A stretch of 64,000 bases of DNA from Escherichia coli (GCF_030384885.1 NZ_CP128613.1), one strand, 5' to 3'; counted from the stretch's first letter, positions 1 to 24,163 are shown. Made by a program: numbers and translations. Notes: generated by a model not told the origin, from the sequence alone.

Positions 1-12
1 ACATTAGTCACA

Positions 13-828
13 ATGACTATGCAGGATCACGCAACATTAAAAGAAATAAAAGATTTAGCGAAGAACATAACACAGCGATACGGTACGCCGGATCTTTGTA
101 TAGAGGCGATGCGTAAAAAGAACCTGAAAACGATGTTATTTATCAGTCAGTTGAAAGCAAAAACGAATTTTCAGGTTGTCGGTTTAACCATGAAGTGCTA
201 TTCCCCTTTGTGTAAGAACGCGTCCCGGATGGATCAGAATCTCAGGGCTCCCGTACCCATGACATGGGCGTTTATGATGCGTGAAGCGGGTTTTCCTGCA
301 GTCAGGCCAATATATGAATTACCATTAAGCGAGCAGGTAATAAATGAAGTACGTGAGGAATTGTGCACTTTAGGATCTTACATTGCGCTTAATTTAGATG
401 GCAGCGTGCAGGAACGCACATTTTCGTTATCAGTAGCTGAGAAACTCATCGCCAAAATTCAAAGTGATAATGATATGCCAATAGTCATTGTTCATGGACC
501 AAAAGGGGAAGATAAAGCCCGGAAATTAGCGGGTTGTTATAATAATGTCTACCGGCTATCCTTATCACCCTCGATTAAACGTTCAGCAGCAATCATAAAA
601 GATGCTTATATCGCAATAACCCCTGATACCTCAATATTACATATGGCAAGTGCCTATAATACCCCCGTCGTTGCAATTTATGCTGATTACAAAACGCGGT
701 GGCCTGCGATGGCAGATATCTCGGAGTCAGTGGTCGTTGGGCAAAAAATTGATCATATAAGTTTGGATGAATTCGGAAAGGCGCTAAAAAGTGCTTTGGA
801 GAGAGTATGTGCCAGTACTTACGTATAG
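13..828 (+). CDS. yeeL: Glycosyltransferase family 9 (heptosyltransferase-like) protein, YeeL homologue. The frame is open back to position 1, so the true 5' end may lie outside the window.
   Basis: 271-aa ORF. The C-terminal half shows a GT9-type pattern (GSYIALNLDGS ... ITPDTSILHMASAYNTPVVAIY). It lies tail-to-tail with yeeJ, as I recall for K-12. Confidence 0.55.
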   Translation: MTMQDHATLKEIKDLAKNITQRYGTPDLCIEAMRKKNLKTMLFISQLKAKTNFQVVGLTMKCYSPLCKNASRMDQNLRAPVPMTWAFMMREAGFPAVRPIYELPLSEQVINEVREELCTLGSYIALNLDGSVQERTFSLSVAEKLIAKIQSDNDMPIVIVHGPKGEDKARKLAGCYNNVYRLSLSPSIKRSAAIIKDAYIAITPDTSILHMASAYNTPVVAIYADYKTRWPAMADISESVVVGQKIDHISLDEFGKALKSALERVCASTYV

Positions 829-1207
829 AAGGTAATGCCGATCTATGCTGAACAGGGGACATTAATACCCTGAGGTTGGTCAATCACCACAAAAAAAACC
901 TTTGAATCAAAGCAATACTCACCGAATAATAAGGCAACCTGAACTTAAATCCCCGTTAACTGGCATACATTATTATGACTTGCACTGATGTAATTAGCTA
1001 AATATTATCGTGATTTGACTAAATAGCAAAAATGATAGCTATCAAAAATAGCTCATATACTTTGTTTCCCGCTGCCGTAGAATAGATGGTCCTTCCATGT
1101 TTCAAGCATTTATTCAAAAAAAAGGGGGCTCGACTGTCTTACGATAAACAGAGAGGGATTGTAAAGTCGAGTGCCCCTAATGGAGCACTCTATAAAAAAA
1201 TCAACAA

Positions 1208-4200
1208 TCAAATGTTTTTATAACATGTCACATGAGAAAATCCAAGTTTTGCCATTACGCTTTGCTCACCTGTTGCCAGGGAAATTTCGTATTGTTCATT
1301 GGAGTTTGCGGGACTAGATGACCAATACATATCTGAATAAAAATCGGCTTCATTCATGTAATGCCCCATATCTCCCCATTCACTGTACAATGTCCCTATA
1401 CCTCGGGAACGACCCTGGCTTAAAAGGCTTGCACGGGGAAGCATGTAGCCATTGCTACTGCAAAAATTTTCAGCAAGGCTGTATATCATGAAAGAATCGC
1501 CGGAGTTTACCCACCAACTCTTCACCCGGATTTCGTATATATAGCCAGGGCCTCCTGATTTTGGCGTCGCTGTAATCGTTACCCAACTGCTTCCGACATT
1601 TTTAAATGTCACTTTACCGGTAGCGTCAACATCGACCCAGGAGGCAGAGCTTGAAAACTCATAATCAGCCGCCGTTTTGCCCGGGGAAAAGTTGTCATTA
1701 TTCAACTGATAATAAGCCCCAGTGAACCCCTGCGAAGGGAATGTAGTTGTCGGTAGGTTAGCACCATTGACTAACACGGTACCGCTCATTATTTTGTCTT
1801 CTGCGCGAGTGAATTGTATTGTGGTACTCAGACCCGCTTGATGAACACCATTCAATACAGGGATCAGCGTTGCGATACCCTCTCCGCCTCCTATAACAGT
1901 GGCTTTGTAATCACCGTTGATATTTTGACTGTAATCAATTGCGCTAATTTTCACATAGGGCACGTTAGTACCTGATTGCACAAATTCCATCCCTTCAGAA
2001 ACTTTGATCGGATTGCCTGATATATCGTGCAAAACAAGATGTAGCTCAGCACTATCGGTATAGTCCCCTTTTAGTGATGACCGATTGTTCTTAAGGACGG
2101 ACTGCGAGGCGTCTGCCGGGCCTGCCACCAGCGTTATATTAGCTGTTTGCGTTGCACCTGTGCTCGTTCCTGCACTAACAGTTACGCTCCCAGTTCGCGC
2201 ACTTTTCAAGGTGGTTGTCGCAAATCCGTGTTGATCGGTCACCGCTGTTAATGACCCTAATGTGGCAGAGCCACTTTTTAATGCGAAGTTCACATTGACG
2301 CCTTCGACTTGGTTACCACTGCCGTCCTCAACAGTAGCCTTCAGCGTGCTGATATCGCTGTCGTTGGCAGTGATAGTTGACGGATCAGCGCTCAGGCTGA
2401 CCACATGGGCTGTGCTTTGGTTGCCAGTAACTTTCACGATTGTCTGCGCCTGAATAATTACGCCACTAGTGATAGATGCTGTAACCGTATACGTACCGAC
2501 TTTATTGCTGGTCAGAACGACTTGTGCCTCCCCGGAAGGATTGGTTTTCATTGTTTCGCTACTTAACGTTGCATCTTCTGGCGTTACGCTAAAGGTAACG
2601 AGTTCATTGTTCACTGGGGCCCCATTTGGATTGGTTAGCCTTACTGTCAGAGTTGAACCTAATGGGTCATTGATGCCGATAAGTGGACTTGATGCTGTGA
2701 GTGTCAGTTTTAAATCGATTACCACCAGGTCCTTCTCATAAGAGGAGCCATTCGCCAGGGATGCTTGCACAGTATACGAACCGTATCTATTGGGCGTCAT
2801 GGTGACCTCGGCTATACCCTGTGTATTCGTAGAGACCGTATCCTGACTAATGACCATGTTAAAAAATGACGGCTCTGCACTGAATGTCACAAGCTGTTCA
2901 GAAACTGGATTGCCAAACTGGTCGTCGACGTGCGCTTTAACCGCCAGGGGGGTTGCGACCATAACCTGACCTTCAGGCATTTCCAGACTGGTGATCGTCG
3001 CAGAATCAGCATCTGCTTTGACAGTCAACGTTTGCATGATGGTATCTGTAGGTGCATTTGCCAGATTAGCCACAACAATTTTCGTCCCTGCAATGGTGCT
3101 TGTTACAAGAATTTCTGCCTTACCCTGAGCATCTGTTTCAGCGGTGGTGTTACTCAGCGTGGCGGATAAGCCGCGGAAATTGACCTTGATGCCTTCTAAT
3201 GGATTGTCATAAGCGTCAGTGACACTTGCCGTCAGGGTCGCACCCTCGGTTGTGCTGGCGATTAATGAGCTTGATGATGCGGTAAAATCAGCCAGTTTAG
3301 CGGTACTCGCATCGGCAAGCAAAGTCACCGGCCTCGTATCACTGACACCATAACTGTCCACGCTGACCGTCACGGGATAGGTGCCGGACTTCGTACCGCT
3401 TAGTGTAACTTCCGCCTTGCCGTTGATGTCAGTAATGGCGGAACCGCCTTCTCCAAGAGTGAAGCTTGCACTCACATCTGCCGGTAGTGTGAATGTCACC
3501 GGCTCATTGGCTAACGGGTTGCCGTGTCCATCAGTCACCGTTGCCTGAAGTTGGGTCATCCCAACGTTATTGGCGATAAAGTTGTTCTCGGTAACGTTCA
3601 GATTAACCTGCGCTGTGAGCGTATCCGCAATAAAGTTCACCACCAACTGCTCACTCTTACCGCCAGCCATCGCTGCTGTCACGGTATGTGCTCCTGCTTT
3701 TGTACCTTTCAGTGTGACTTTCGCTTTGCCTTCAGCATCAGTAACCGCTTTACCGCCATCGCTCAGCGTGAAGTTTGCCCTCACATCTTCCGGGAGAGTA
3801 AATGTTACTTCAGTGTTGGCTATCGCATTGCCCTCTGTATCTGCGACTGTTGCTGTTAATGTCGTGAGATCGTTATTGTCGGCAATCACCGGATCTTTTG
3901 AGGCTCCCAGCGTGATTTCAGCATTCGCCACGTTCGGCACATAGGTCACTGTTTGTTGTATCGAATCGCCATTGTCGAGCGTTGCCGTCACTTGATAAAC
4001 CCCGGCTTTTGTAGCGGTAAAGCTTGCGTAAAAATGGCCGTAGGAGTTGGTAGTATATATAGCGTTATTACTGGGGGTCACACCTTCACTTGGCGAAACG
4101 CTGATGGTCACCTTATGTTGGGGTACACCGTTTCCGTAATTATCGTTTACCACAACATACAGATCGGTCGTGTTGCCTGCGGAGACTGTATCAGTAAGTG

Positions 4201-5281
4201 CTTGTAACAAGGTGATATGTGCCGTAGACGCATCAGCGTTGACATTAATTGATGTGCTAAGCGTGGAGCTACCATTTTCCAGACTGGCCTCAACGGTATC
4301 CGGCCTCCCTCCTGATTCTGCCGAGGAACGGGTATTGGTATAAGTGACGGTTGCCTTACCCTGTTCGTTCGTTACGGCTTGGCCGCCATTCGTCATTTCA
4401 GCAGAGTTTGTACTGCTGGTGAAACTCACAGTTACACCTTTCACCGGAAAGCTATTATTATCAACGACTGTCGCGGTGATGACGCTGCCGGTGCTATTCT
4501 GCGGGGTACCAGCGATTATGCTGTTTGGGACAGACGTCAACCCAATAATTTTTGCCGCAGCTGTGTCGCCAATAAAGTGCACAGTTTTGTGGTCGCTGGC
4601 ACCATTATTAGCAAGTGATACAGTGACCGTCTGCTCACCAAAGGCAACGCCTACGAGAGTGGCCTGCGCGATGCCAGACTCATTGGTATTACTCTCCCCT
4701 GGGGTGAGGGTGAGGCCTGAAGAGGCTGAGCTGAATGTTACCGGAAGATTGTTCACCTCATTGTCGAACTGGTCTTTAACCGTTGCAGTTAACGTTGCAC
4801 TATCGACGCCATTACCCGTGATCTCATCTTTTGACATCTGCAGGGCAACCTGAGCCGAGGTTTTGTCTGCCACAAATGTTACCGGCTGCGATTCACTGGC
4901 ATTGTTATTAATCAGCGTCGCGGTAACTGTATGCGTGCCCGCTTTTTTACCTTTGAGGGTGACATGCGCTTCCCCATTGGCTTGGGTGACGGTAATACCG
5001 TTATTTTCAAGGGTAAAGTTTGCCGCGACGTCTTGTGGCATGGTGAAATTCACCGCTATCCCCGCCACCGGATGATTCGACGGATCTTTCACTGTAGCTG
5101 TCAGCTGCACACTGTCGCTGTTATTCGTCACCACCTGGTGAGCAGGAATGTTCAGCGTGAGCCGCGCGTTGCTGGCATCGGGAGCAATATTGACTGTCTT
5201 CGAATCGCTATTGCCGTTAGGCAGAGTGGCTTCGGCTGTATGAACACCCAATACCGCGCCTTTTAGGGTAACTTCAGCAAA
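1208..5281 (-). pseudogene. yeeJ: yeeJ, 5'-truncated inverse-autotransporter (intimin/invasin family) adhesin. Only about 1350 C-terminal codons remain (Big-domain repeats plus a C-terminal domain); there is no signal peptide or beta-barrel part.
   Basis: 1347-aa ORF built of roughly 100-aa repeats, each with a G(K/E)A.VTLKG.KAG.H.VTA motif. Repeat-type sequence (FAEVTLKGAVLGVHTAEATL) continues upstream of the first possible start to about 5281 and then ends at an in-frame stop (5294-5296). Confidence 0.8.
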
Positions 5282-5286
5282 CCGCC

Positions 5287-5535
5287 ATGGCAGCTAATAT
5301 GCTGGGTGTTGACGTCATTAATCTCGCTAATGAAGGTTGTTTGTGCCTGTTTGTTGAACCTGAGTATGCTCAGAAGGTACTACATTTGCTGCAGGAGCAT
5401 CCTGTCGGCAAGCACGCGACAATTATCGGCGAGATCACCGCTGTCTCGGGTACTGAAGTCTATATGATTGAAGCTGATGGAACACACACAGAAGTCGAGG
5501 AATTATATGGCGCAGAATTACCCAGACTCTGTTGA
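5287..5535 (+). pseudogene. hypE-like fragment (last ~80 codons of a HypE-type carbamoyl dehydratase).
   Basis: By eye the 82-aa ORF matches the extreme C terminus of HypE, including the terminal ...AELPRLC (HypE ends in PRIC with the modified Cys). An in-frame stop lies at 5269-5271 and nothing HypE-like is upstream. Its stop overlaps the hypF-like start. Confidence 0.65.
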
Positions 5536-7885
5536 GCTTCACGAGACGCCGGAAACCCGGCGTTACCGCATCTGTGGGGTCGTTCAGGGCGTTGGATTTC
5601 GTCCCTTTGTTCACCGACTGGCCCGCACCTATGGTGCCACCGGCTGGGTGTTAAACGATTCAGAAGGCGTGTTGCTTGAGCTGCAGGCATCCGGCACGGT
5701 TATTGCCAGAATCATGGACAAACTGGTGACCGAGGCACCACCACTGGCAAAAATCATCAGTACGCAGGAAGTTAGCCCAACGGATACCAGAGCGCACTAT
5801 GAAACGTTCAGCATCCGTAAAAGCCGCGATCATACCAGCATGGACACGATTATCCCGCCAGATACCAACGTCTGCAGCGATTGCCTGCGCGAGATAAGCG
5901 ATCCTGATAATCATCGTTATCGTTACGCTTTCACCAATTGCACCAATTGTGGGCCGCGCTATTCCATTATTCTTGGTATGCCTTACGATCGTGCCCAGAG
6001 CACTATGCGTAAATTCCCTTTATGTCCAACCTGTGAGCGTGAATACAACGATATTGAGGATCGACGCTATCATGCCCAGCCCAATGCCTGCCCAGTTTGC
6101 GGCCCACAGTTGCAACTTACCGATCGACAGGGCACATCCGTTCACACAGATGATATTGTCAAATTTGCCATTACGAAACTAAAAGAAGGCGGAATTCTTG
6201 CAATAAAGAGCCTTGGTGGCTTTCATCTCGTGGCCGATGCTTGCAATGAGAATGCTGTCAATGAACTTCGGCAACGCAAGCGAAGAGACGCCAAACCTTT
6301 TGCAGTGATGGTCGCGGATGTGGAAAGCGCGTCGCGTATTGCTTTCATCCCCCCCTGTAATCACAAATTGCTGGAAAGCCCGCAGCGTCCCATTGTCTTG
6401 TTGTATAAGCGCAACGTCCTGCTGGCGAGTACCGTTGCGCCACATAATCCGAACATCGGTGTAATGCTGCCTTCAACGCCGCTTCAGCATTTATTGCTGG
6501 AAGACCCGTCTCTGCCGATCCTGATTATGACCAGCGGTAATATTTCCGGTCATCCGATCGTCTTTGACAACGACATGGCAATTAAGCAACTCGGGAAAAT
6601 CGCGGATTACTTCATTCTGAATAATCGCGATATTCATACGCGTGTTGACGATTCGGTGGTCCGCACGGTGTTTCGCAACGACGCCATTACCTCGCAGCTA
6701 TCGTTTTTGCGCCGCTCCCGCGGTTACGCGCCATACCCTATTCATCTACCTTACGCAGTGGATTCCGTTATCGCGCTCGGGGCGGAGCTAAAAAACACGA
6801 TCAGCATCGGCAAAGGAAAACAGGTTTTTCTGAGCCAGCATATTGGCGATCTTAAGAATAACGTGACTTTTAAATCACATATCGAATGTATTGATCATCT
6901 TCAAAACCTGCTGAACGTGAAGGCAAATGTCGTGGCCTGCGATTTGCATCCCTCTTTCCGCTCTACCCGGCATGCGCTGGAGAATTTAGAGCATCAGGTT
7001 GTTCAGGTTCAACACCATCACGCGCATATGGCATCCTGCATGGCGGAAAATGGCCTGTCAGGTACTACTCTAGGCGTAATTTTTGACGGTACAGGATATG
7101 GCACCGACGGCACCATTTGGGGCGGTGAGTTTCTCGTTGGTGATTTCGAAAAATTCGAGCGTGCAGGATGCTTGCGTTCAATGACCCTGCCCGGAGGCGA
7201 TCGGGCAGTTAAAGAGCCGCTGCGCGTCGGCATCTCCTTACTGGTGGAAACCTTCGGCGAAGATATCAGTACGCTCGCAGTACCAGGCTTGCAGGCGCTC
7301 CAGCCTCAGCAGCGCGATATATTCAGTAAAATGGCGACCAGAAAAATCAACACCACCACGACCAGCAGCATGGGCAGACTATTTGACGGCATCGCCGCGC
7401 TGATGGGCGTTTGCACTCAGGTGGAGTACGAAGCCCAGGCGGCCATTGAACTGGAAGCGCTGCTGCAGTGTAAACTTCATATGACGGCTCCGTTCAGCTA
7501 CATCATTGCCGATGTCGAGAATAAGCTCGAGGTGGATTATCGCCCGATGATAAGGGAACTGGTGCAATGCTTCAGCCAGCCCGGTTTTGATATGGCCGAA
7601 CTAAGTCGGCGCTTTCACTCTACCATCGTCGACATGATTTGCGAGGTCTGTAAACGTCTGGTGGCACGCTCAGGCACGCAACAAATTGTCCTGAGCGGCG
7701 GCGTGTTCTGCAATGAATTCATCCTCGTTAATTCTCTTAACAGTCTGGAGTCTTGTGGATTCCGGCCTTACAGCCATCAGTTAGTTCCGACTAACGATGG
7801 TGGTATTTCATTGGGGCAAGTGGTTATTGCTACCGCATACACTCGCGCAACGCGCAATAAAAATCTGGAGAGAGAAAATGCATAG
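5507..7885 (+). CDS. HypF-like carbamoyltransferase (acylphosphatase domain, two Zn-finger pairs, YrdC-like and Kae1-like domains).
   Basis: YRICGVVQGVGFRPFVHRLA (acylphosphatase). CSDCLREISDPDNHRYRYAFTNCTNCGPRYSI and CPTCEREYNDIEDRRYHAQPNACPVCGP (4x CxxC). Later HHHAHMASC and GGV motifs. The ATG at 5507 overlaps the hypE' stop. Confidence 0.85.
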   Translation: MAQNYPDSVELHETPETRRYRICGVVQGVGFRPFVHRLARTYGATGWVLNDSEGVLLELQASGTVIARIMDKLVTEAPPLAKIISTQEVSPTDTRAHYETFSIRKSRDHTSMDTIIPPDTNVCSDCLREISDPDNHRYRYAFTNCTNCGPRYSIILGMPYDRAQSTMRKFPLCPTCEREYNDIEDRRYHAQPNACPVCGPQLQLTDRQGTSVHTDDIVKFAITKLKEGGILAIKSLGGFHLVADACNENAVNELRQRKRRDAKPFAVMVADVESASRIAFIPPCNHKLLESPQRPIVLLYKRNVLLASTVAPHNPNIGVMLPSTPLQHLLLEDPSLPILIMTSGNISGHPIVFDNDMAIKQLGKIADYFILNNRDIHTRVDDSVVRTVFRNDAITSQLSFLRRSRGYAPYPIHLPYAVDSVIALGAELKNTISIGKGKQVFLSQHIGDLKNNVTFKSHIECIDHLQNLLNVKANVVACDLHPSFRSTRHALENLEHQVVQVQHHHAHMASCMAENGLSGTTLGVIFDGTGYGTDGTIWGGEFLVGDFEKFERAGCLRSMTLPGGDRAVKEPLRVGISLLVETFGEDISTLAVPGLQALQPQQRDIFSKMATRKINTTTTSSMGRLFDGIAALMGVCTQVEYEAQAAIELEALLQCKLHMTAPFSYIIADVENKLEVDYRPMIRELVQCFSQPGFDMAELSRRFHSTIVDMICEVCKRLVARSGTQQIVLSGGVFCNEFILVNSLNSLESCGFRPYSHQLVPTNDGGISLGQVVIATAYTRATRNKNLERENA

Positions 7886-8618
7886 TTCTGCGAACCGTAT
7901 TGCCGCTGTTTTATTCGATATGGATGGTGTCCTTATTGATTCCAATGCGGTGATTGAGCGCGGCTGGGCTGAAGGCGCACAGATGTTTGGCAAGACGCTA
8001 ACGGAAGAGGATATCGTCAGGCATATTCACGGACAGCCCGGCCCGCATACCATTCGCGCCCTGTTCAGCGACCTTTCCCTGGAAGATCAAAAGAAGGTCC
8101 AGTCACATATCATCCACGTTGAAAATACCGCTGATTACGACCCGATCCCTGGAGTTAGCGAACTTATCCAGGCGTTGCATAAGGCTGGCATCAGTGTGGG
8201 GATTGTCACTAGCGGCTGGCGGTCGAAAATCGATCGTATTATGGAGATGCTGCAAATCACGCCCTGTATTTCAGTGATTGTCGAACGTGATGATGTCGTG
8301 CGCGGCAAGCCTTATCCCGATCCTTATCTGCTTGCCGCAGAGCGGTTTCATCTTGCACCGTCCAGAACACTGGTCTTTGAGGATTCAAGAAGCGGCGTAA
8401 CATCTGCTGTTACAGCAGGCGCAATTTGTGTTGGCATCGGTACAGACAGTCTGAAAGAGTGCGGTGCCGTGCTTGCAATTACAGATTTTCGTAATGTGAA
8501 AATCACCTCACAGACAGGCGAAAAAGTAGTGATTGCCTTTACTCCAGAGCACCAGATGGAGATGGAAACTCAGAGCTCTCGTAAGAAAACATCCTGTACC
8601 ACAAGAGAAGAGTGCTAA
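7878..8618 (+). CDS. HAD-superfamily hydrolase (beta-phosphoglucomutase/phosphatase-like).
   Basis: N-terminal AAVLFDMDGVLIDS (DxDG motif I), VTSG (motif II), FEDSRSGVTSAVTAGA (motif IV). The start overlaps the hypF-like stop by 8 nt. Confidence 0.75.
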   Translation: MHSSANRIAAVLFDMDGVLIDSNAVIERGWAEGAQMFGKTLTEEDIVRHIHGQPGPHTIRALFSDLSLEDQKKVQSHIIHVENTADYDPIPGVSELIQALHKAGISVGIVTSGWRSKIDRIMEMLQITPCISVIVERDDVVRGKPYPDPYLLAAERFHLAPSRTLVFEDSRSGVTSAVTAGAICVGIGTDSLKECGAVLAITDFRNVKITSQTGEKVVIAFTPEHQMEMETQSSRKKTSCTTREEC

Positions 8619-9811
8619 TGAATATCACACAGAAGGGACGCTGGGCTGTCACTATGCTATTTTTTATCAATGGCTTCGTCACCGGAGGTTGGGCTGTGCA
8701 AATTGCACAGCTTGTACCACGCTTTGGCGTGACCGACAAAGTGATCGGCCATTTAATTCTGATCTTCGGATTCGGTGCACTAACCATGATGCCCATATCA
8801 GGCATTCTGATGGAAAAGATGGGGACACAAATCGTAACGCGTATTTTTGCCCTTGCAGCCTCCCTGGCATTAATTCCGGTTGGTTTAGCCACCACCCCAT
8901 TAGTGTTGATGCCAGCGTTATTTGTTCTTGGTGCGATGATTGGTGCCATGAATGTAGCGATGAACTCGAATGCCGTGGCGGTGGAGAGATCACTCTCACA
9001 AGCGATTTTATCCTCCTGCCATTGCTTCTGGAGTATCGGCCTATTTGCGGCGGGCTCGATAGGCGGCCATCTTGTTGAACAATTTGGCTTTTTGACGCAT
9101 ATCTTTTTGATTAGTGCCGTGGCCTTAATACTGACGCTGATTATCGCTCCGGCCATTTTTAAAGACATACAGACGGTTAAATCCACCAGCAGACAGACCA
9201 CCCGGTTGCCTCGTTCTCCGGCGATTTATCTGATTGGATTGATGGCTTTTCTGGCCATGATCCCTGAATGCGCTGTTGTTGACTGGTCGTCACGCTATTT
9301 GATTAAAAATCTCAATGCAAAAACAGAAATCGCCAGCCTTGCCTTCGCCTGCTTTGCTGTAGCAATGGCCTTGTTTCGCTTTATGGGTGACGTGATCCGC
9401 AACCGCTTCGGCGCAATATTAATTATACGAGTCTCCAGCTTACTGGCAGGCGCTAGCCTATTGTTGAGCGCACTGGCACACAATCCCTGGCAGGCGATCT
9501 GCGCATTTACCTTAGCGGGAATCGGCATCGCCAACCTTGTGCCCATTGTCTTTTCCGCAGCGGGAAATCAGCCCAATATTTCCACCAACACAGGAATGAG
9601 CATTGCCACAACCATTGGGTATTTAGGCACGCTAATGGCCCCTGCGCCTATTGGCTATATTGCGGAAATAACCGGTTTTCCAGTGGTTTATTGCGGACTA
9701 GCTTTCATGTCGGGAATTATCTTTTTGCTGGCACCACTGGTTCGGGGGGCAGAAATCTCTGTACAGCGGCAGCGAGCCTCAAACAAACACCAGAATACCG
9801 GAGCGTTGTAA
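8618..9811 (+). CDS. MFS-type transporter (about 12 predicted hydrophobic segments).
   Basis: 397-aa highly hydrophobic ORF. Its ATG overlaps the HAD stop (TAATG), implying translational coupling. Confidence 0.65.
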   Translation: MNITQKGRWAVTMLFFINGFVTGGWAVQIAQLVPRFGVTDKVIGHLILIFGFGALTMMPISGILMEKMGTQIVTRIFALAASLALIPVGLATTPLVLMPALFVLGAMIGAMNVAMNSNAVAVERSLSQAILSSCHCFWSIGLFAAGSIGGHLVEQFGFLTHIFLISAVALILTLIIAPAIFKDIQTVKSTSRQTTRLPRSPAIYLIGLMAFLAMIPECAVVDWSSRYLIKNLNAKTEIASLAFACFAVAMALFRFMGDVIRNRFGAILIIRVSSLLAGASLLLSALAHNPWQAICAFTLAGIGIANLVPIVFSAAGNQPNISTNTGMSIATTIGYLGTLMAPAPIGYIAEITGFPVVYCGLAFMSGIIFLLAPLVRGAEISVQRQRASNKHQNTGAL

Positions 9812-10262
9812 TTTCTGCCTGGCAAATACTGTGAAACGCTGACGCAAATTTTACTTTCCTGCGTATTGTCATCACAGGCCGTACAGACAGTGCGCGGTCT
9901 GTTGGCGGATCTGCCTGGTATTTTGCCGATGAACTGAGGGCGTCCTGCGGGATACGTATCGCCAGGGGCGTGAAACTAATTGATGAGGTGGCGGCATGAT
10001 GCCGGCGGACTAGCATATCTGCCTTTCGCCGCCTGACATGTCCTTTGGGGCCGCTGTCAGTTCAGAGTAAAGGAGAAAAAGATCGATACCGAGGGGGGGC
10101 ACGACGCCCCGGAGACACCCCTGTTTCGTCAGACAGTCTGTACCGCGTACAGCCTGAAACTCCCTAAACCTCAACAAACTGCCACTTCGACGTGAAGGTA
10201 TCGTTCTGGCGCAGCCAAAAAGCACATGCCGGAGACTGTTTTTTAGGTTGTAGAGGGTAGTC

Positions 10263-10400
10263 ATGAGCAAATTAAGTAGTGAAATGAAGGCCCTGACGAA
10301 GAAAGCAGGCGGCAGCTTCAAAACGGTAAATGACCGTATCCATATTACAAAACGGTTCAGTGAGCATTTACGCGAACTGAACATCCAGATCCGGCGGGTA
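10263..10400 (+). pseudogene. N-terminal fragment (~46 codons) of a second, different phage-type integrase.
   Basis: MSKLSSEMKALTKKAGGSFKTVNDRIHITKRFSEHLRELNIQIR resembles the N-terminal domain of an enterobacterial integrase family I remember. Similarity is lost at about 10400, where the P4-type fragment begins on the other strand. Confidence 0.35.
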
Positions 10401-10565
10401 TGCGCCAAGACTGACTCTGGATTCTTTTCCGTTGAAACGATATTTGAGATACCAGATGCGTGAACCGCCCGGATTGACGAGCAGATACAGACCGTGAGAG
10501 TCGGAGAGTTTTACCGGACGGGAAGAGGTTTTTAACTTGCGGATTTTAGAATCGTTTAAAGACAT
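10395..10565 (-). pseudogene. P4-type tyrosine integrase, N-terminal 57-codon fragment.
   Basis: MSLNDSKIRKLKTSSRPVKLSDSHGLYLLVNPGGSRIWYLKYRFNGKESRVSLGAYP is the classic DUF4102/P4-integrase N terminus. It is adjacent to the tRNA-Asn 3' end and transcribed away from it. The rest of the gene is absent. Confidence 0.7.
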
Positions 10566-10726
10566 TTGGGGGTCACTCCAGAATCGAACCAAACTGACCC
10601 CAGATCTGACCACCAAATTATCCCGATGCGGAGAGAAAACCAGATACGCACCGGGGAGGATTTTCACGCTAACTTACTGAACCGTAAACAAATAGAGATG
10701 TACAGATAAGCATGAAAACTTGAATT

Positions 10727-10802
10727 TGGCTCCTCTGACTGGACTCGAACCAGTGACATACGGATTAACAGTCCGCCGTTCTACCGACTGAACTACAGAG
10801 GA
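10727..10802 (-). tRNA. asnT: tRNA-Asn (anticodon GUU).
   Basis: The reverse complement reads TCCTCTGTAGTTCAGTCGGTAGAACGGCGGACTGTTAATCCGTATGTCACTGGTTCGAGTCCAGTCAGAGGAGCCA. It lies between mtfA and yeeJ. Confidence 0.95.
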
Positions 10803-10902
10803 ATCGTGTGAACAGGGCGCATGTTACTTAGCGGTACCTTGTCTGTCAACACTAAATTTCATAAGTCATTTCAATTGGTTAATTAATCTGCAAAGTTGTT
10901 AA

Positions 10903-11700
10903 TTAATGAACATTCGTCGCCGAAAACGAGTCTGTATCATTAGCGTGATGCAGTCTCTGCAAAGGATCTTGTTGATAAAATTGGCAGAAACGTTGCCACA
11001 ATGAAGGGAAACGAGGAGCAAAAAGCTCAGGGGCGCTAAAGAAATATTCAGAAAGTACGGCAAAACACTCAGCAGGATCACTGGCAGCATAAGCATCGAT
11101 GCTCGCCGCATTCTCACCGACTAATTCGATCTCTTCCTGAATGTTGTTCATTGCGGCATGAAGATCGTGTTCCCAGCCAGCAACCTCACGCAACGGAATA
11201 AAGGGAACTCCGCTGGCGCGATCGCCGTTACGGGTGTCCAGCTTATGAGCGACTTCATGAATAATCAGGTTAAAACCAGAAGCATCAAACGAATCTTGTA
11301 TATCCAACCAGTTCAAAACGATTGGCCCTTGCTGCCAGCTCTGACCTGACTGAACAATACGTTGGTTATGCACTAAACCGATATCGTCTTCCCACTCATC
11401 ATCGACTACAAATGGCGCAGGGTAAATTAAGACTTCATGAAAACCATCCAGCCATTCTAGCCCTAACTCCAGAACGGGCAGGCAAAATAGAAGGGCTATC
11501 CGGCAGCTTCTTAATGAATCCAGCTCAAAGCCCTGTAAGGGAACAAGCCGTTTTTGCTGTAAAAAACGTTCGGCAAGAGTGACTAATTTGCTTTGTTCCT
11601 GTTCTGTCAGGCACGTTAAAAGGGGAATCGATAGTGCTTCCTGCCAGGGAAGGGCAGTTTGATGTGCTGATTCTTGTACTTTCCAGGGCCACTTAATCAT
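10903..11700 (-). CDS. mtfA: Mlc titration factor A (glucose-induced peptidase-like regulator).
   Basis: [23 protein letters not shown]... recognised as MtfA/YeeI. HEVAH zinc-peptidase motif present. Confidence 0.9.
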
Positions 11701-11793
11701 CGTTTTGCTCGCAAACTCGTCACTTGAACAAAATTGCACGGACAGGGACTGTTAAAATGCCAAATTTCCTGGCATCATGGCAACCATCTGAAC

Positions 11794-11883
11794 GGAGAGA
11801 TGCCGGAGCGGCTGAACGGACCGGTCTCGAAAACCGGAGTAGGGGCAACTCTACCGGGGGTTCAAATCCCCCTCTCTCCGCCA
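11794..11883 (+). tRNA. serU: tRNA-Ser (anticodon CGA), 90 nt with long variable arm and encoded CCA.
   Basis: GGAGAGATGCCGGAGCGGCTGAACGGACCGGTCTCGAAAACCGGAGTAGGGGCAACTCTACCGGGGGTTCAAATCCCCCTCTCTCCGCCA. The anticodon loop is CT-CGA-AA. Confidence 0.95.
11870..11883 (+). repeat. attL-type copy of the island-flanking direct repeat (3' end of serU).
   Basis: CCCTCTCTCCGCCA occurs identically at 34279-34292. Confidence 0.65.
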
Positions 11884-18126: not shown

Positions 18127-18684
18127 TTAATTTTTGTTATTCACTGTTTTCTTTTTGTCCTTCAAGTAATAAGTTTTCATGAAAGTTAAACGATCACCAT
18201 TAAACATATAGTCTGGATTAATAAAATAATAGTTCTGTATCATGGTCTCAGCAATAAATTTCTTGTCAGCAAGTTCTTTCATCCCTTTGAAATATGTCGT
18301 TCTTGATATTTTTACAATCTCTTGATCAACAATATCGAATGACATTAATATCGTATCTGTATCTTTATTGTCTCTAATAGCAAGATACAGTATCTTAAAT
18401 ACTTTCTTACCTGATGAGGATAAACCCTCAATAGCTGATACGCCATCCACATAAAGCTTCACGAACTGTGTCTTGTCTACTTCCATTGACTGAAAGAAAC
18501 CACCATGCCCAACCTGTTCTCCTGTATTTTCATTTACTACGGCTAAGCGGTCTTTTCCTGTTGTGATACGTCTGATACCTGTTTTTGTATGTATATTTGT
18601 ATCATTAAGGAATGGGTTTTTTACATGGCGAGGTAGACCTCTTCTTGATTTCTTTACTTCCGTTTGTATCTTATTTTCTATCAT
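18127..18684 (-). CDS. RepL-like / winged-helix DNA-binding protein (possible replication or maintenance protein).
   Basis: The pattern FVKLYVDGVSAIEGLSSSGKKVFKILYLAIR ... ISRTTYFKGMKELADKKFI ... YFINPDYMFNGD resembles the RepL-family layout I remember (F.K.Y...L..LS....KV...L, a wHTH, then INP....G). This is remembered similarity only. Confidence 0.4.
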   Translation of the reverse strand: MIENKIQTEVKKSRRGLPRHVKNPFLNDTNIHTKTGIRRITTGKDRLAVVNENTGEQVGHGGFFQSMEVDKTQFVKLYVDGVSAIEGLSSSGKKVFKILYLAIRDNKDTDTILMSFDIVDQEIVKISRTTYFKGMKELADKKFIAETMIQNYYFINPDYMFNGDRLTFMKTYYLKDKKKTVNNKN

Positions 18685-19095
18685 GGTACTTACTCCTTTA
18701 TTTTTTTAGTTATACATTTAAGTAAATACTATATTTTGCGTGCAAGTCAATACTTAAAGTTTATATTTTTTAAAATAACTAACACTTGATGTTTTTACGT
18801 ATAAAACTTGTAGTGCTACAGAATATATACAAATAACACTTTATTATTTTTATTTGAGAATAGTTATCAACTTAAGTACCGGGATTCGGGACTTTAACTC
18901 CCGAGAGTGCGTACTTTGTTTTAAGCTATAGCTGGCTTGAGAGCAGTTTTCTTCTTCATTATTCAAATAGCGAAGCTTTGGATGACATTTTAAAGAATAT
19001 AATATTGGAAATAGTTCTTCTTTTTAGTTGATTGGTGCCTTATCAAAATGGCACCAGTGGTGTTATCTGTGTTATTTTTCCTACTATGTTATTAC

Positions 19096-19143
19096 AGCGA
19101 AGTGATTGTTGTATACAATCACGAACCGCTGCTACTATCGGGA
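19096..19143. repeat. Copy A of a ~46-48-bp repeat carrying an inverted repeat (GTGATTGT...ACAATCAC).
   Basis: AGCGAAGTGATTGTTGTATACAATCACGAACCGCTGCTACTATCGGGA. It matches copy B at most positions. Confidence 0.7.
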
Positions 19144-19233
19144 CTGCTTGATTAATTTTACTTTAACTTTATATGCGTCTACGACGCGATCTTTTTTGGA
19201 TAAATCCAATATTAACAGGGGCAAGCCCTGTTC

Positions 19234-19279
19234 AGCAGAGTGATTGTTCGCAACAATCACGAAGTGCTGCTATCAAGGA
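19234..19279. repeat. Copy B of the same repeat (GTGATTGTT-CGC-AACAATCAC hairpin or palindrome).
   Basis: AGCAGAGTGATTGTTCGCAACAATCACGAAGTGCTGCTATCAAGGA. Confidence 0.7.
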
Positions 19280-19602
19280 TATAGTTTTCCTATACGTTTA
19301 AGAGCAAATGCTATATGTCTAAAGGGAAAAACTATGTTTAAACATAGGATCTAAATTCAGCATCATGAGGAAAAGAGATCAAACAATGATCGAGTACTTT
19401 TCTTTTTATTTAAAAAACAGGAGATGAATAAAATAAAAATATCAGCGTCAGGGCGTAGCCGTGCGTAAGCACAGAGATAAAGATCTTTTCAATAAGAAGT
19501 TTAATAATCAGTAGTGAAATCATAAATAAAATAAAAATATATTTGATTTTTACGCCTGCGATAGAGTATTAAACAGTAATAAAATAATAAAAGGAAAATA
19601 TA

Positions 19603-19872
19603 ATGAACAATACCAAAATGATCACTCTCTTCCATCCACATGACAAAACACCATTTATAATCTGTATTGTAAACAAAGTAGAAGATACAGACCACGGATT
19701 GAAATTAACCCTTGAAAACGGCAACAATATTTGTGTCAATAATTATAGTCATTATCTGTTATCAGAGTCTGTAAGTCGTTGCGATAAACACAGGTTAAAA
19801 AATATTTATATTCGCTTGGTTTCAGAACTCACGCAGATGAGTGAAAAAACTATAAATTCGCAAATGTTATAA
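19603..19872 (+). CDS. Hypothetical protein (89 aa).
   Basis: ORF with AAAGGAAAA upstream. No family recognised. Confidence 0.35.
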   Translation: MNNTKMITLFHPHDKTPFIICIVNKVEDTDHGLKLTLENGNNICVNNYSHYLLSESVSRCDKHRLKNIYIRLVSELTQMSEKTINSQML

Positions 19873-19950
19873 AATATCTATAAAGACATAATAAATATTT
19901 TTGATATTATGATTAGTTGCATGGTATTAAATAAAAACAGGAAAAATATC

Positions 19951-20355
19951 ATGCTAAAAATAAAAACAAAGATCTATATACCTACAACTTTAACAGGAAA
20001 CATGGATAAACACTATATCCCTGTTTTAGAGGATTTAAGAAAAGCGATATACAGCGACAGAATGTTATCAAGGCTTGCAGATAGCGGCAATATTGTTATC
20101 CATAGTTCAGTTGGGTATCCGGTTGCTAAATACAAAAATACGGGTATTAGCATAGGTATAGAACCATTGAATCCAATGATAAGACAAAATCTGACTCTTG
20201 GATATATTATGGTTGTCAGAAACGGAAAAGCATCACAGGAGATTAATGGTTTACTTAACAGGTCATTGCCAAAAGCAATAAGCACTTTTAAGGATCACAT
20301 CAATGAATATGAAGCAGTAAAAAGTAAAATGCGACAACAAACTATGATCTGGTAA
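19951..20355 (+). CDS. Hypothetical protein (134 aa).
   Basis: ORF. ATG 19951 is preceded by ACAGGAAAAA. Confidence 0.35.
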   Translation: MLKIKTKIYIPTTLTGNMDKHYIPVLEDLRKAIYSDRMLSRLADSGNIVIHSSVGYPVAKYKNTGISIGIEPLNPMIRQNLTLGYIMVVRNGKASQEINGLLNRSLPKAISTFKDHINEYEAVKSKMRQQTMIW

Positions 20356-20385
20356 AATATTTAGTCTGATAACTACAGGAGAAGG

Positions 20386-21432
20386 ATGAGCAATGGAAGG
20401 TAAGTTAATTTTTGTTCCGATGCAATACTACGGTTTCAATCCAATTACGATGAAACCGCTGCCGTTCCATTGCTATCCATCCAGAACGTCATAGCCAATA
20501 CCGATCCGTTCTTTCTTCTCCGGTTCTTCCACCATACCGTTCTGATTGAAGAAGGAACAACGCTGGCAAGTATCTTTCTGGCAATAGAACCATGGAAGGC
20601 TTTGTTAGCAGCTTATCTGGACAGAGATGTTGGTGCTTATATAGATGAGGTAAGAAAACCGTCCGGGCCAACGGCATGGGATATTGAATGGATCGGAATT
20701 GACCGTCGAAGTTCGGTTTATCGCGCTTACAAGCGTCAGGATATGGAAGAAGGGGAGGATTTTTCGACCTATTTTAATCGCGAGCGCTTCCCGACTGATG
20801 AGCTTGACATAGAAAGTAGCTGTGATGCTTCCGGCTTTATCAAAGGAGATAAAGAACGCTGGAGTATCAGCGGCGATATTCAACAAATTAAAAATCTTCC
20901 TGTAATCCTCTATAGCAAACAGACATTAATGACTTCACCGAAAGACGGTTTGCTGAAGAAAAACGTATCGGGTGTGAAGAGTTCCAAGCACAGTTGCTTT
21001 GTTTATGGCGATACCTCGTTTTCTTTTAGAGAGGTTATGGAAGCCATCTTCATTAGTAGGCTGTTCTTCTATGCACCAAAAGACGCAGCCAGCAGCCTTG
21101 ATGAGCTGAAAGCGAGTCTGGCTGAACTGGAAGAAGAACGTGCTGAAAGCACAAATACGGAGTCGATCGGCAATGAAACAGGTGAAGAACCTACCATCGT
21201 CGTAGCCGACGGTGCTTTTGATTCGCTCGCTGCTCACATGGAGTCTGAAAAGCGGAGTGGCAATCCATTAAGAAGTTGTGCCAGCAGGAAGGAGGGCTGC
21301 CCATACGTATTGGCAACATCAAAATGGCTGAGCCTCCAGCGTTATAGCTATTTTAAGAAAAGAAATGATGTAAATATGCATCTGGTTTTTCTTTATAATG
21401 TAAGGATGTCCGATGAAACATCAGCATCGTGA
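20386..21432 (+). pseudogene. Hypothetical gene interrupted by an in-frame TAA at codon 6 (or re-initiating at TTG 20470).
   Basis: ATG 20386 has a strong RBS (AGGAGAAGG) and is in the same frame as the 320-aa ORF starting at 20470. Only one stop (20401-20403) separates them. This gene is noticeably less AT-rich than its neighbours. Confidence 0.4.
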
Positions 21433-21640
21433 ATGTTATCTGGTTAATAATTTTCTTATGTAATATTATCTATGCCATCTGGCTATGTTTTCAATTGTTT
21501 TAGTTCTCGACAACTGTTTTTATATCCAGTATGATTTTACTCGTATCCGGCAGAATATTTTTAGATGCTGTTTCATGAACTCCGGTTGAAAGGTTTATTC
21601 TCTACTTTTGGGAATAATAGTTAAAATGGAGATAAGTGTA

Positions 21641-23077
21641 ATGACGTTTAGTAATGAAATTGAAGTTTTCATAAAAGATTTTGTTAAAGATCTTGAAAAT
21701 GATTGTGCTGCTATTTTTTCTGGCGCAGGAATGTCTAAAAGTCAAGGTTATGTTGATTGGAAAGAATTACTTAGCGATATAGCAGAAGAACTTAGTTTAG
21801 ACATTAATAAAGAAGACGATCTAATATCGCTTGCTCAATTTCATGTTAATGAAAAGAAAGGGGCTACAAAACTCACAAGGAAGATAATCGAAGAGTTTTC
21901 TGAGCAAGCCGAGCCATCAGAGGTTCATAATATAATTGCTCGTTTACCGATTAAGACATTTTGGACAACAAACTATGACACTTTAATTGAAGATAGTCTG
22001 CGGAAAGTTTACAAAATTGCAGATGTAAAAAGAAACATAGATGATTTAAATACAACACGACCTAAGCGAGACGCGATAGTATATAAAATGCATGGTGATA
22101 TTTCGTCCCCATCCAAGGCTATTTTATATAAAGAGCAGTATGAAAAATACTACAGAACACACGCTTCATTTATCACCGCACTTAGCGGAGATTTAATATC
22201 AAAAACCTTTCTATTCATAGGGTTTAGTTTTACCGACCCAAATCTGGATTACATTTTGAGTCGTTTGTATACTCATTCTGGGGACAAGAGGACACACTAT
22301 TGCTTTATGAAGAATGAGGCTAATAATTCCCTAGATGATGAAGAAACAGTAAATTATAAGATCAGAAAACAAAAACTGCGAATCGATGATCTCAAGAGAT
22401 TTGGTATACAAGTATTATTAATAGATGAATATTCTGACATCCCTAAAATTCTAGCTAAGATAGAGCAATCATTTAAAAAGAAAACGATATTTATTTCTGG
22501 TAGTGCAGAAAAATATGGGGATCTTGAAAGACCTAAAGCATTAGATTTTATTCACACATTAGCATATGAGATTATAAAGAATAATTATAGGATAGTGAAT
22601 GGATTTGGATGGGGCGTCGGAAGTTCTGTGATAAATGGTGCGTTGGATGCAATTTATAGTAGGCCAGATAAATTATCAGAAGAACAGCTCATTGTTAGAC
22701 CATTTCCACAAACTGTCAGTAAGGGGAAAGATATTCAAGAACTTTGGGAGGAGTATAGACAGAGAATGATTCCTCTTGGTGGTATTGCATTGTTTATTTT
22801 TGGAAATAAACAAGAGGAAAATAATGATATAGTTAATGCTAGGGGAGTATTTAGAGAGTTTGAGATTGCTGTTCAACATGGCCTTGTACCAATTCCTTTA
22901 CCCAATACCGGGTATATGTCTAAATATATATTTGAACAAATATCACAAGATCCTAAGAAATATTATGGAAGTAATGAATGGATATATAATGATTTGTCTG
23001 AGCTTACTGAAAAAGATTTTTCGGTAAAAAAAACAATAGAAGTTGTAATAAAAATCATAAACAAACTGAATAAATAA
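21641..23077 (+). CDS. thsA: Thoeris ThsA: N-terminal SIR2-like NADase domain plus C-terminal SLOG-like ligand-binding domain.
   Basis: SIR2-type motifs are IFSGAGMSKSQGYVDWKELL, FWTTNYDTLIE, IVYKMHGDIS and LFIGFSFTDPNLDYI. The C-terminal half has IFISGSAEKYG...NGFGWGVGSSVINGAL (SLOG/LOG-like). At about 478 aa it is close to my memory of the Bacillus ThsA size (roughly 475 aa). Confidence 0.85.
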   Translation: MTFSNEIEVFIKDFVKDLENDCAAIFSGAGMSKSQGYVDWKELLSDIAEELSLDINKEDDLISLAQFHVNEKKGATKLTRKIIEEFSEQAEPSEVHNIIARLPIKTFWTTNYDTLIEDSLRKVYKIADVKRNIDDLNTTRPKRDAIVYKMHGDISSPSKAILYKEQYEKYYRTHASFITALSGDLISKTFLFIGFSFTDPNLDYILSRLYTHSGDKRTHYCFMKNEANNSLDDEETVNYKIRKQKLRIDDLKRFGIQVLLIDEYSDIPKILAKIEQSFKKKTIFISGSAEKYGDLERPKALDFIHTLAYEIIKNNYRIVNGFGWGVGSSVINGALDAIYSRPDKLSEEQLIVRPFPQTVSKGKDIQELWEEYRQRMIPLGGIALFIFGNKQEENNDIVNARGVFREFEIAVQHGLVPIPLPNTGYMSKYIFEQISQDPKKYYGSNEWIYNDLSELTEKDFSVKKTIEVVIKIINKLNK

Positions 23078-23093
23078 TATATTAGGTGAAGTT

Positions 23094-23705
23094 ATGGCTC
23101 ATGAAACATTCATATCATATAAATATAGTGAAGCACAGGATTTAAGAGACAAAATTGTCAAGGCATTAGGAGATGACGCTGTTTACTATAAAGGGGAGAC
23201 ATCGGAGTCTCCTGATATAAGTAATACAACAGTAGATAATATAAAGAACAATCTTAAAAATATGATTTTCGGGACATCTGTTTTAATTGTTATTATTTCC
23301 CCGAATATGATTAAAAGTAAATGGATTGACTGGGAAATTGAATATGCATTGAAAGAATACAAGAGAGGAGGAACCACTTCCCGAACTAATGGCATTGTTG
23401 GTGTGATAATGAAGGTTAATAATAGCTATGACTGGTTAGTATCTTCTTCAATCAAGCCTGATGGATGTTCATCAAGAACTATTGATACAACTAAACTATA
23501 TGACATTATTAATAATAATAGGTTTAATTTAACTTCAGAAGATAAATATTGTTGCCCTGAGTGCAAATCATATGATCAATTGACTGGTTCTTATATTTCA
23601 TTGATAGAAGAAGACCGATTTTTAGCAGATGTATCTTCATACATTGAAAATGCCTATGAGAAATCTAAAAAATTAAGTTCCTACGATTTATATAAACAAA
23701 AATAG
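23094..23705 (+). CDS. thsB: Thoeris ThsB: TIR-domain protein.
   Basis: FISYKYSEAQDLRDKI... and ...SVLIVIISPNMIKSKWIDWEIEYAL give a TIR-like fold with the conserved Glu in WEIE. It lies 17 bp downstream of thsA on the same strand. Confidence 0.8.
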   Translation: MAHETFISYKYSEAQDLRDKIVKALGDDAVYYKGETSESPDISNTTVDNIKNNLKNMIFGTSVLIVIISPNMIKSKWIDWEIEYALKEYKRGGTTSRTNGIVGVIMKVNNSYDWLVSSSIKPDGCSSRTIDTTKLYDIINNNRFNLTSEDKYCCPECKSYDQLTGSYISLIEEDRFLADVSSYIENAYEKSKKLSSYDLYKQK

Positions 23706-23720
23706 ATGATAACGGAAAAG

Positions 23721-23740
23721 GGCCACAATTATTTGTGGCC
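23721..23740. terminator. Hairpin between the convergent thsB and lipoprotein genes (probable bidirectional terminator).
   Basis: GGCCACAA-TTAT-TTGTGGCC, a perfect 8-bp stem flanked by A/T-rich sequence. Confidence 0.5.
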
Positions 23741-23754
23741 TATATATACACATA

Positions 23755-24132: not shown

Positions 24133-24163
24133 TTTGTTCCATAATTAGATGAAAGGTGAGACG

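Follow-up and report, generated by a model that had tools for sequence, protein, structure and literature searches.

A deletion-disrupted cysH-hypE-hypF island in Escherichia coli and its possible role outside hydrogenase maturation

Results

Genes of the window

The stretch of Escherichia coli DNA analysed here (64,000 nucleotides of NZ_CP128613.1, assembly GCF_030384885.1; hereafter the window) contains a short operon in which a remnant of hypE is followed by hypF, a HAD phosphatase gene and an MFS transporter gene. Textbooks describe HypE and HypF as enzymes with one purpose, the making of the cyanide ligands of [NiFe]-hydrogenase. The operon is the surviving part of an accessory island in which genes for a LysR regulator and a cysteine hydrolase (CysH) precede hypE; the island and its CysH-HypE-HypF trio are the subject of this paper.

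The hypF gene (positions 5507-7885, plus strand) is intact and encodes a protein of 792 residues that is 100% identical to protein cluster P0001. In an NCBIfam profile search it matches TIGR00143 with 788 bits (cut-off, 466) over model positions 2-740 of 741, and its Pfam domains are Acylphosphatase, two zf-HYPF (together four CxxC motifs), Sua5/YrdC, HypF_C and the Kae1-like HypF_C_2. The solved HypF structures 3VTH (E = 4e-191), 4G9I and 3TSP can be aligned with it from end to end. The metal- and nucleotide-binding motifs of the Kae1 domain, HHHAH and DGTGYGTDG, are retained in the full-length alignment to 3VTH and 4G9I. The predicted activity is the carbamoylation of the C-terminal cysteine of HypE, dependent on carbamoyl phosphate and ATP.

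The next gene (7878-8618, plus strand; 246 residues) encodes a sugar-phosphatase-like member of the HAD-IA family, with 112 bits to HAD_2, 67 bits to TIGR01509 (cut-off, 29.4) and the DxDG nucleophile motif present as LFDMDGVL. Its best equivalog is the sugar phosphatase PRK11587 at 114 bits, below the cut-off of 282, and no substrate-specific equivalog among the NCBIfam models was found above its cut-off. The MFS transporter gene (8618-9811, plus strand; 397 residues) matches MFS_1 (PF07690) with 96.5 bits (cut-off, 33.4) over residues 16-344, and none of the NCBIfam models for specific transporter families was reached. A base-by-base check showed that consecutive genes overlap throughout: hypE ends at 5535 and hypF starts at 5507 (29 bp); the hypF stop codon TAG occupies 7883-7885 and the HAD start codon ATG lies at 7878 (8 bp); and the HAD stop codon TAA (8616-8618) shares one base with the MFS ATG at 8618 (TAATG). 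The RefSeq gene limits on the identical DNA of CP027579 (E. coli 2013C-4282) agree with ours for hypF, HAD and MFS, and the RefSeq product names are carbamoyltransferase HypF, hydrogenase expression/formation protein HypE, cysteine hydrolase, HAD family hydrolase and MFS transporter. A tblastn search of the whole window with ten K-12 Hyp and Hyc proteins found no other homologue.

The hypE remnant (5281-5535, plus strand) consists of the last 82 codons of a 343-residue HypE (residues 262-343, ending in GAELPRLC). It covers positions 251-332 of the 332-position model TIGR02124 and scores 78 bits (cut-off, 251.6). At 5287, the ATG codes for Met262 of the intact protein, and frame analysis places an in-frame stop codon directly upstream of the remnant. 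The window copy is not a complete PurM-like protein; the intact HypE of CP027579 scores 415 bits against the same model and has both the N- and the C-terminal AIRS domain. Alignment to CP027579, with exact extension of both flanks, locates a deletion junction with a 2-bp AA microhomology at 5279-5280, from which 7,160 bp of the 2013C-4282 sequence are missing. The missing DNA comprises the 5'-terminal 3.9 kb or so of yeeJ, lysR, the stretch between lysR and cysH (the presumed site of the operon promoter), cysH and hypE codons 1-261, or 76% of hypE. A consensus scan, which is weak evidence, found no promoter-like site upstream of hypF in the window.

On the other side of the junction, the 3' part of yeeJ (1208-5280, minus strand), which codes for an Ig-like/inverse-autotransporter adhesin with ten Big_1, an Invasin_D3 and an Invasin_D4 Pfam domain, retains about 1,357 of 2,662 codons. 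It has lost its start codon along with the N-terminal part for secretion and anchoring (the gene is 7,989 bp long in CP027579), so that the deletion that truncated hypE has also made a pseudogene of yeeJ in this strain. The window is otherwise base-for-base identical to CP027579 at 1-5270 and 5291-11883, and 100% identical at 36001-60000; the two differences are the 7,160-bp deletion and a 22.4-kb island at tRNA-Ser. What remains of the operon has accumulated no mutation relative to CP027579. Given the loss of the regulator, the promoter region, cysH and hypE codons 1-261, together with the in-frame stop and the lack of a promoter-like site, the operon is a dead remnant: a promoterless hypF-HAD-MFS unit with an 82-codon hypE stub, whose pathway is inactive in this strain.

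Much of this had been anticipated in the original prediction, which described a complete HypF with acylphosphatase, four CxxC, YrdC and Kae1-like parts, the tail of a HypE-like gene ahead of it, overlapping stop and start codons from hypE through to MFS, a HAD phosphatase and an MFS transporter, and a window free of hydrogenase structural genes. Each of these points held, every coordinate of the overlaps included, and proper alignment revealed no loss of conserved catalytic residues in HypF. The suspicion that the truncation of hypE had left the pathway defective was true and, as lysR, cysH and the promoter region are lost along with three quarters of hypE, understated.

The intact island in E. 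coli

We searched 5,426 complete E. coli genomes by megablast and found the cluster in 16 (0.3%); all 16 matches begin at window position 5279. The gene order in CP027579 is yeeJ, a divergent lysR, cysH, hypE, hypF, HAD, MFS, integrase fragments and tRNA-Asn, and positions 5279-10667 of the window are the right-hand part of this accessory island of about 7.7 kb, which is integrated at tRNA-Asn. The end of the island is marked by integrase pseudogene fragments (10263-10667; an arm DNA-binding domain, PF13356, on the minus strand and a short N-terminal fragment on the plus strand, as in the RefSeq annotation of CP027579), and the integration site is tRNA-Asn (GTT) at 10727-10802 on the minus strand, as predicted by ARAGORN; mtfA and tRNA-Ser follow. 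The element has the features of a tRNA-associated genomic island, namely an integrase beside a tRNA gene, a patchy distribution among strains and two tRNA-Asn sites. The second site is beside nac, where two E. coli genomes, one of them that of Z1323HEC0462 (CP148331), carry the cassette at another copy of tRNA-Asn. In CP148331, about 10 kb of phosphotransferase system, sugar-phosphate isomerase, rpe and hxlB genes lie upstream of the cassette, and a longer, frameshifted integrase gene is found at that tRNA-Asn.

A conventional [NiFe]-hydrogenase beside the intact island, which would have refuted the original prediction, was not encountered when the neighbourhoods in the 16 E. coli genomes were compared, and these islands contain no hydrogenase, hypC or hypD gene. 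We also considered an anti-phage defence system and rejected it, as none of the six island proteins had a PADLOC match at E <= 0.001.

Decayed copies were seen in other genera. hypE is cut after codon 112 in Raoultella terrigena; in a Gilliamella sp. a deletion runs from hypE to about codon 743 of hypF and leaves cysH, HAD and MFS; and in Lonsdalea britannica and an Acerihabitans sp. the tblastn matches to hypE, hypF, HAD or MFS are split, which suggests frameshifts. The cassette has decayed independently in these four genera. This decay, the presence in only 0.3% of complete E. coli genomes and the use of two tRNA-Asn sites show the cassette to be an accessory trait that is dispensable and often lost.

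The CysH-HypE-HypF trio across bacteria

Relatives of the window HypF with 50-67% identity (from Burkholderia, Sorangium, Enterobacter, Streptomyces and Hafnia) all have an isochorismatase-family protein and HypE encoded directly upstream. Using an alignment of four such hydrolases (61-78% identical) as the query in a scan of one genome per species, we found CysH relatives encoded in 123 stretches, of which 80 loci were kept. In nearly all 80, tblastn placed CysH, HypE and HypF side by side in this order; the exceptions are visibly decayed or cut copies and one locus (L080) with HypE and HypF about 4 kb upstream of CysH. The 80 loci span Proteobacteria, Myxococcota and Actinobacteria (Enterobacterales, Burkholderia, Trinickia, Paraburkholderia, Sorangium, Streptomyces, other actinomycetes, Solirubrobacterales metagenome-assembled genomes, Psychromonas and Photobacterium). 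The alternative order HypE-HypF-CysH occurs inside an MbtH/nonribosomal peptide synthetase (NRPS) cluster. The trio is plasmid-borne in Citrobacter, Salmonella, Paraburkholderia, Rhizobium and Streptomyces. One Citrobacter freundii record (NZ_CP056259.1, 82 kb), typed as a non-mobilizable plasmid, has the housekeeping-looking genes ndh, nagZ, thiK, lpoB and hinT around the cassette; it might be a misassigned contig or part of a chromosome.

Homologues of CysH form at least 530 clusters at 90% identity and carry generic names only (cysteine hydrolase, nicotinamidase-related amidase). The Asp-Lys-Cys triad D10/K97/C130 is invariant in 91 sequences. The C-terminus of the cassette HypE is similarly constrained, reading GAELPRLC in 79 of 86 sequences and PRLC in 83. 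The terminal cysteine that HypF would modify is present, in the motif PRLC and not PRIC, the ending of the canonical HypE of K-12, P. phymatum and Caldanaerobacter (see also PMC12130793). Cassette proteins from E. coli, Paraburkholderia, Streptomyces and Sorangium are 59-67% identical to each other for HypE and 50-60% for HypF, compared with 39-43% and 33-41%, respectively, to canonical proteins, which include the hydrogenase-cluster paralogue on the same P. phymatum plasmid. The trio is widespread in bacteria and probably horizontally mobile, and the cassette proteins form a coherent group.

Accessory genes

Neighbouring genes in high-GC loci were assigned by tblastn with annotated neighbours; naive longest-ORF (open reading frame) calling produced antisense shadow ORFs and was abandoned, and filtering by GC content at third codon positions helped only partly. 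Three types of locus can be distinguished. Type B, which includes the E. coli island, is found in Enterobacterales and Burkholderiaceae and consists of LysR, the trio, HAD (at least 58% identity) and usually an MFS gene. Several Burkholderia and Trinickia loci add a protein comprising only the isomerase domain of GlmS (287 bits to GlmS residues 277-587), an Amidohydro_1 enzyme and an AguB-like N-carbamoyl-amine amidase of the nitrilase superfamily, although not all three everywhere. Type A occurs in actinomycetes, Solirubrobacterales, Hafnia, Photobacterium and Paraburkholderia and features a 2,4-diaminobutyrate transaminase of the EctB/Dat family, which is present in 44 loci and scores above the family cut-offs. 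It is often accompanied by a GNAT protein, DdaF-like ATP-grasp amino-acid ligases, an EamA exporter and a LysR regulator, and one Streptomyces subtype adds aspartokinase, Asd and glutamate mutase. Identification of the GNAT protein as EctA was not supported, as it matches no NCBIfam model, those for EctA included. In type C, the Sorangium trio is flanked by an NRPS and an ABC exporter of the cyclic-peptide type. The recurring neighbours of the trio are predicted to be a primary-amine-making enzyme and an exporter.

LysR regulators and cysteine amidohydrolases are typical of catabolic operons, and in Burkholderia an amidohydrolase and the AguB-like amidase are at hand, so the cassette might be read as a catabolic or salvage operon. 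The MFS protein would import a carbamoylated, ureido or cyano compound, CysH and the HAD phosphatase would degrade it, and LysR would respond to the substrate. Such an operon would have little use for HypF and HypE, which spend two ATP on building, not breaking, a C-N unit, nor is it easily reconciled with trios inside clearly biosynthetic clusters containing NRPSs, ATP-grasp ligases and exporters. We regard it as the least probable of the explanations considered in this paper.

Relation to hydrogenases

To cover hydrogenase genes around the cassette, 89 related loci with up to 10 kb of flanking sequence on either side were searched with HypA-HypF, HycE, HycG, HycI and HydN of K-12 (NC_000913). 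HypA, HypB, HypC, HypD, HycG and HycI had no match in any of them, and a hydrogenase large subunit was matched in one locus only, that of Paraburkholderia phymatum. Plasmid pBPHY02 of this species carries a complete hupSL...hypABFCDE set on one strand and, divergently on the other, ectB-GNAT-orf-cysH-hypE-hypF (locus L097, positions 18316-25618 of the record). The hydrogenase set has its own HypF and its own HypE, which ends in MLPRIC, whereas the cassette HypE ends in GAELPRLC. Plasmid pBPHY02 is a natural control for the hydrogenase independence of the trio.

Two HypFs from outside the cassette deserve mention. Those of Clostridium cellulovorans and of a Clostridia metagenome-assembled genome are 52-54% identical to the window HypF and occur without HypE or CysH, each after a gene resembling an aminoacyl-tRNA synthetase (histidyl- or seryl-type) and a gene for a protein with no Pfam match. 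They may represent yet another non-hydrogenase use of HypF.

Neighbouring element at tRNA-Ser

The second difference from CP027579, which lacks it, is an integrative element of 22,395 bp (11884-34278) that sits precisely at the 3' terminus of tRNA-Ser (CGA). A 14-bp direct repeat, CCCTCTCTCCGCCA, bounds the element at 11870-11883 and 34279-34292. An integrase ORF occupies 32897-34114 on the minus strand, and between 13 and 20 kb the GC content drops to about 30%. Among the genes annotated in related E. coli copies, which match 84% of the query at 94.6% identity, are those for a MobQ relaxase, a PilV shufflon adhesin and a SIR2-family protein.

Discussion

The window contains a LysR/CysH-HypE-HypF-HAD-MFS island killed by a deletion. 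The best explanation of the intact form, which we hold with slightly better than even confidence, is a hydrogenase-independent donor of cyano or carbamoyl groups to small amines. The original prediction had already proposed a small-molecule carbamoyl or cyano pathway. The genomic context, with its diaminobutyrate transaminase, ATP-grasp, NRPS, GlmS-domain, AguB-like and exporter neighbours, supports that proposal without proving it.

In hydrogenase maturation, as described in passages of PMC4506123 and PMC12130793, HypF uses carbamoyl phosphate and ATP to place an S-carbamoyl group on the C-terminal cysteine of HypE, and HypE dehydrates this group with ATP to a thiocyanate. In the cassette, HypF would likewise carbamoylate the C-terminal cysteine of its dedicated HypE, in the GAELPRLC tail, and HypE would dehydrate the carbamoyl group to a protein-bound thiocyanate. 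That the eight-residue tail is nearly invariant and CysH obligatory suggests that the next step would be presentation of the modified tail to the active-site cysteine of CysH instead of to HypC/HypD and iron. CysH would take over the one-carbon/nitrogen unit and deliver it to a small metabolite at a primary amine. This would yield an N-cyano compound or, if hydration or amination follows, one with a ureido or guanidino group. The acceptor in type B loci is probably an amino-sugar phosphate; the HAD phosphatase would dephosphorylate the product, the MFS protein would export it and LysR would control the operon. In type A loci (actinobacteria, Hafnia, Paraburkholderia), the likely acceptor is 2,4-diaminobutyrate, either free or as part of a peptide.

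Conservation of the full HypE dehydratase favours cyano transfer. A more specific proposal can be made on this basis, namely that the trio hands an electrophilic cyano group from the protein thiocyanate to amines, to diaminobutyrate or peptides in one version (Streptomyces, Hafnia, symbiotic plasmids of Paraburkholderia) and to amino-sugar phosphates in the other (E. coli, Citrobacter, Enterobacter, Salmonella, Burkholderia). We put it forward tentatively, as possible rather than probable.

A number of observations count against a hydrogenase-independent donor of this kind. The first concern the link to hydrogenase. A neighbour-joining tree of 104 HypFs, drawn without support values, places the three canonical HypFs of solved structure outside and the group P0104/P0106/P0117 among the cassette sequences. 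The P0106 HypF is 55% identical to that of the window and adjoins a group-4 [NiFe]-hydrogenase and HypA. With a hydrogenase-linked protein in their midst, the cassette HypFs cannot be separated from hydrogenase-linked HypFs by sequence. HypF phylogeny had been suggested as a way of recognising a non-hydrogenase clade; it yielded no clean clade of this kind and we rejected it as a discriminator, since HypF alone defines none. The markers that do discriminate are HypE identity, the PRLC tail and linkage to CysH. The second point is that the cassette on pBPHY02 adjoins hydrogenase genes. Transcripts of the P. phymatum cysteine hydrolase, hypE and hypF drop strongly in nodules of a nifA mutant, as listed in a transcriptome table of PMC8305402, which indicates that this cassette is expressed in symbiosis. 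In the same source, the hydrogenase genes share the drop.

These links, together with the canonical catalytic features of both HypF and HypE, could also mean that the cassette supplies a second HypE/HypF pair, as a spare or an alternative, which continues to work in [NiFe]-hydrogenase maturation, perhaps in certain conditions only, with HAD and MFS as unrelated passengers. Such a pair would have to do without hypC or hypD, neither of which was found in up to 10 kb of flanking sequence around the 89 cassette loci, and would be superfluous in E. coli and P. phymatum, which already own another hypE and hypF. It would also leave unexplained the invariable linkage to a cysteine hydrolase, the distinct GAELPRLC tail and the trios inside NRPS and ATP-grasp clusters. 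We consider a spare pair very improbable.

A further difficulty for amine modification is that the E. coli island encodes no amine-forming enzyme. Moreover, one metagenome contig carries the trio alone, with no accessory genes, an arrangement equally compatible with transfer to an acceptor and with the release of a small molecule such as cyanide. CysH might then free cyanide, cyanate or thiocyanate from the HypE thiocyanate as a toxin, signal or building block, and the variable neighbours would use or tolerate what is released. This protein-based cyanogenesis would suit the trio's being the sole invariant part of very different clusters, and a nitrilase-superfamily enzyme does accompany it in Burkholderia. 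However, the repeated tight linkage to amine-producing enzymes and exporters of polar metabolites would be needless for a diffusible gas, and the translational coupling of the HAD phosphatase gene to hypF (by the 8-bp overlap) points to a phosphorylated organic intermediate. Cyanogenesis therefore seems to us quite unlikely.

The last points against our explanation concern the chemistry itself. We infer the acceptor, the product and the role of CysH solely from gene neighbourhood and family resemblance, and whether the transferred group is cyano or carbamoyl is not decidable from sequence. In a carbamoyl or carbonyl donor, CysH would act as a reverse amidase: the S-carbamoyl group would move from HypE to the CysH cysteine, giving the covalent intermediate known from N-carbamoylsarcosine amidase and RutB, and from there to an amine. 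N-Carbamoyl (ureido) compounds or cyclic ureas and carbamates would result, for instance of the N-carbamoyl-glucosamine or ureido-diaminobutyrate type, and HypE would be mainly a carrier. Carbamoyl or ureido amides are the substrates of all the best characterised CysH relatives, an AguB-like N-carbamoyl-amine amidase is found in the Burkholderia clusters, and N-carbamoyl-glucosamine antibiotics exist. A carrier, however, has no need of the whole PurM-like, ATP-dependent dehydratase, which is kept (415 bits to TIGR02124) and 59-67% conserved across phyla, and ordinary O- and N-carbamoyltransferases manage the same chemistry without HypE. Pure carbamoyl transfer is in our view rather unlikely.

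If the trio is indeed a donor to small amines, the chemistry of protein-bound thiocyanate or thiocarbamate would have a second use, and bacteria a new route to cyano, ureido and guanidino groups and to N-cyano, guanidino or ureido natural products. The automatic annotation of many genes as hydrogenase expression/formation proteins would have to be corrected, with the PRLC tail and an adjacent CysH as markers. Attention would turn to secreted metabolites of gut Enterobacterales (Citrobacter, Enterobacter, some E. coli, Salmonella) and of legume-symbiont plasmids. The window copy is a dead remnant, and its value is that it leads to the intact system and is among several instances of cassette loss.

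Compared with known systems, the cassette resembles canonical HypF/HypE (E. coli b2712/b2730; structures 3VTH/3VTI, 2I6R and 2Z1E) in having a four-domain HypF, a PurM-like HypE and a carbamoylatable C-terminal cysteine, encoded by adjacent, translationally coupled genes whose products pass the NCBIfam equivalog models. It differs in that no hypA, hypB, hypC, hypD or hydrogenase genes stand beside it and an isochorismatase-family cysteine hydrolase always does; in its tail, GAELPRLC instead of PRIC; in its identity of only 39% to K-12 HypE and HypF; and in being embedded among phosphatase, transaminase, ligase and exporter genes. Carbamoyltransferases of the TobZ, NodU, CmcH and GdmN class use carbamoyl phosphate and ATP to decorate secondary metabolites in biosynthetic clusters, by way of a carbamoyl-adenylate on YrdC-like and Kae1-like domains. 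They lack the acylphosphatase and zinc-finger domains and act directly on a small molecule, with no HypE partner, whereas the cassette retains the full HypF architecture and a dedicated HypE.

CysH shares the isochorismatase-like fold and the Asp-Lys-Cys triad with N-carbamoylsarcosine amidase, RutB, the biuret hydrolase BiuH and nicotinamidase. Its nearest characterised relatives (3EEF, which is related to N-carbamoylsarcosine amidase, RutB and biuret hydrolase) form S-carbamoyl or thioester enzyme intermediates with carbamoyl or ureido amides. Unlike them, CysH falls far below every equivalog cut-off (for RutB, 54 bits compared with 378) and belongs to a family of its own that occurs essentially only beside HypE/HypF.

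The type A loci recall the front end of ectoine biosynthesis (Ask/Asd, EctB and an EctA-like GNAT). They have an EctB-family transaminase (606 bits in P. phymatum; cut-off, 552), often a GNAT protein and, in one Streptomyces type, aspartokinase and Asd. In contrast to the ectoine pathway, there is no EctC and the GNAT protein has no NCBIfam match; the E. coli island has none of these genes.

The closest precedent in the literature is a passage of Kloosterman et al. 2020 (PMC7794033), in which Streptomyces hypE and hypF homologues without other hyp genes lie beside an ATP-grasp ligase in a candidate cluster for a ribosomally synthesised and post-translationally modified peptide, and a "novel function" is suggested; that passage mentions neither the cysteine hydrolase nor a spread beyond Streptomyces, and it gives no experimental characterisation. 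A full-text literature search, in which subscription journals are thinly covered, returned no description of the module of HypE/HypF and cysteine hydrolase, of the PRLC signature, of the spread across phyla or of a product; besides this remark, its one relevant item was the P. phymatum transcriptome table. The comparison suggests that what is new here is HypE/HypF chemistry in a new partnership, with a cysteine hydrolase, and in the context of metabolite clusters.

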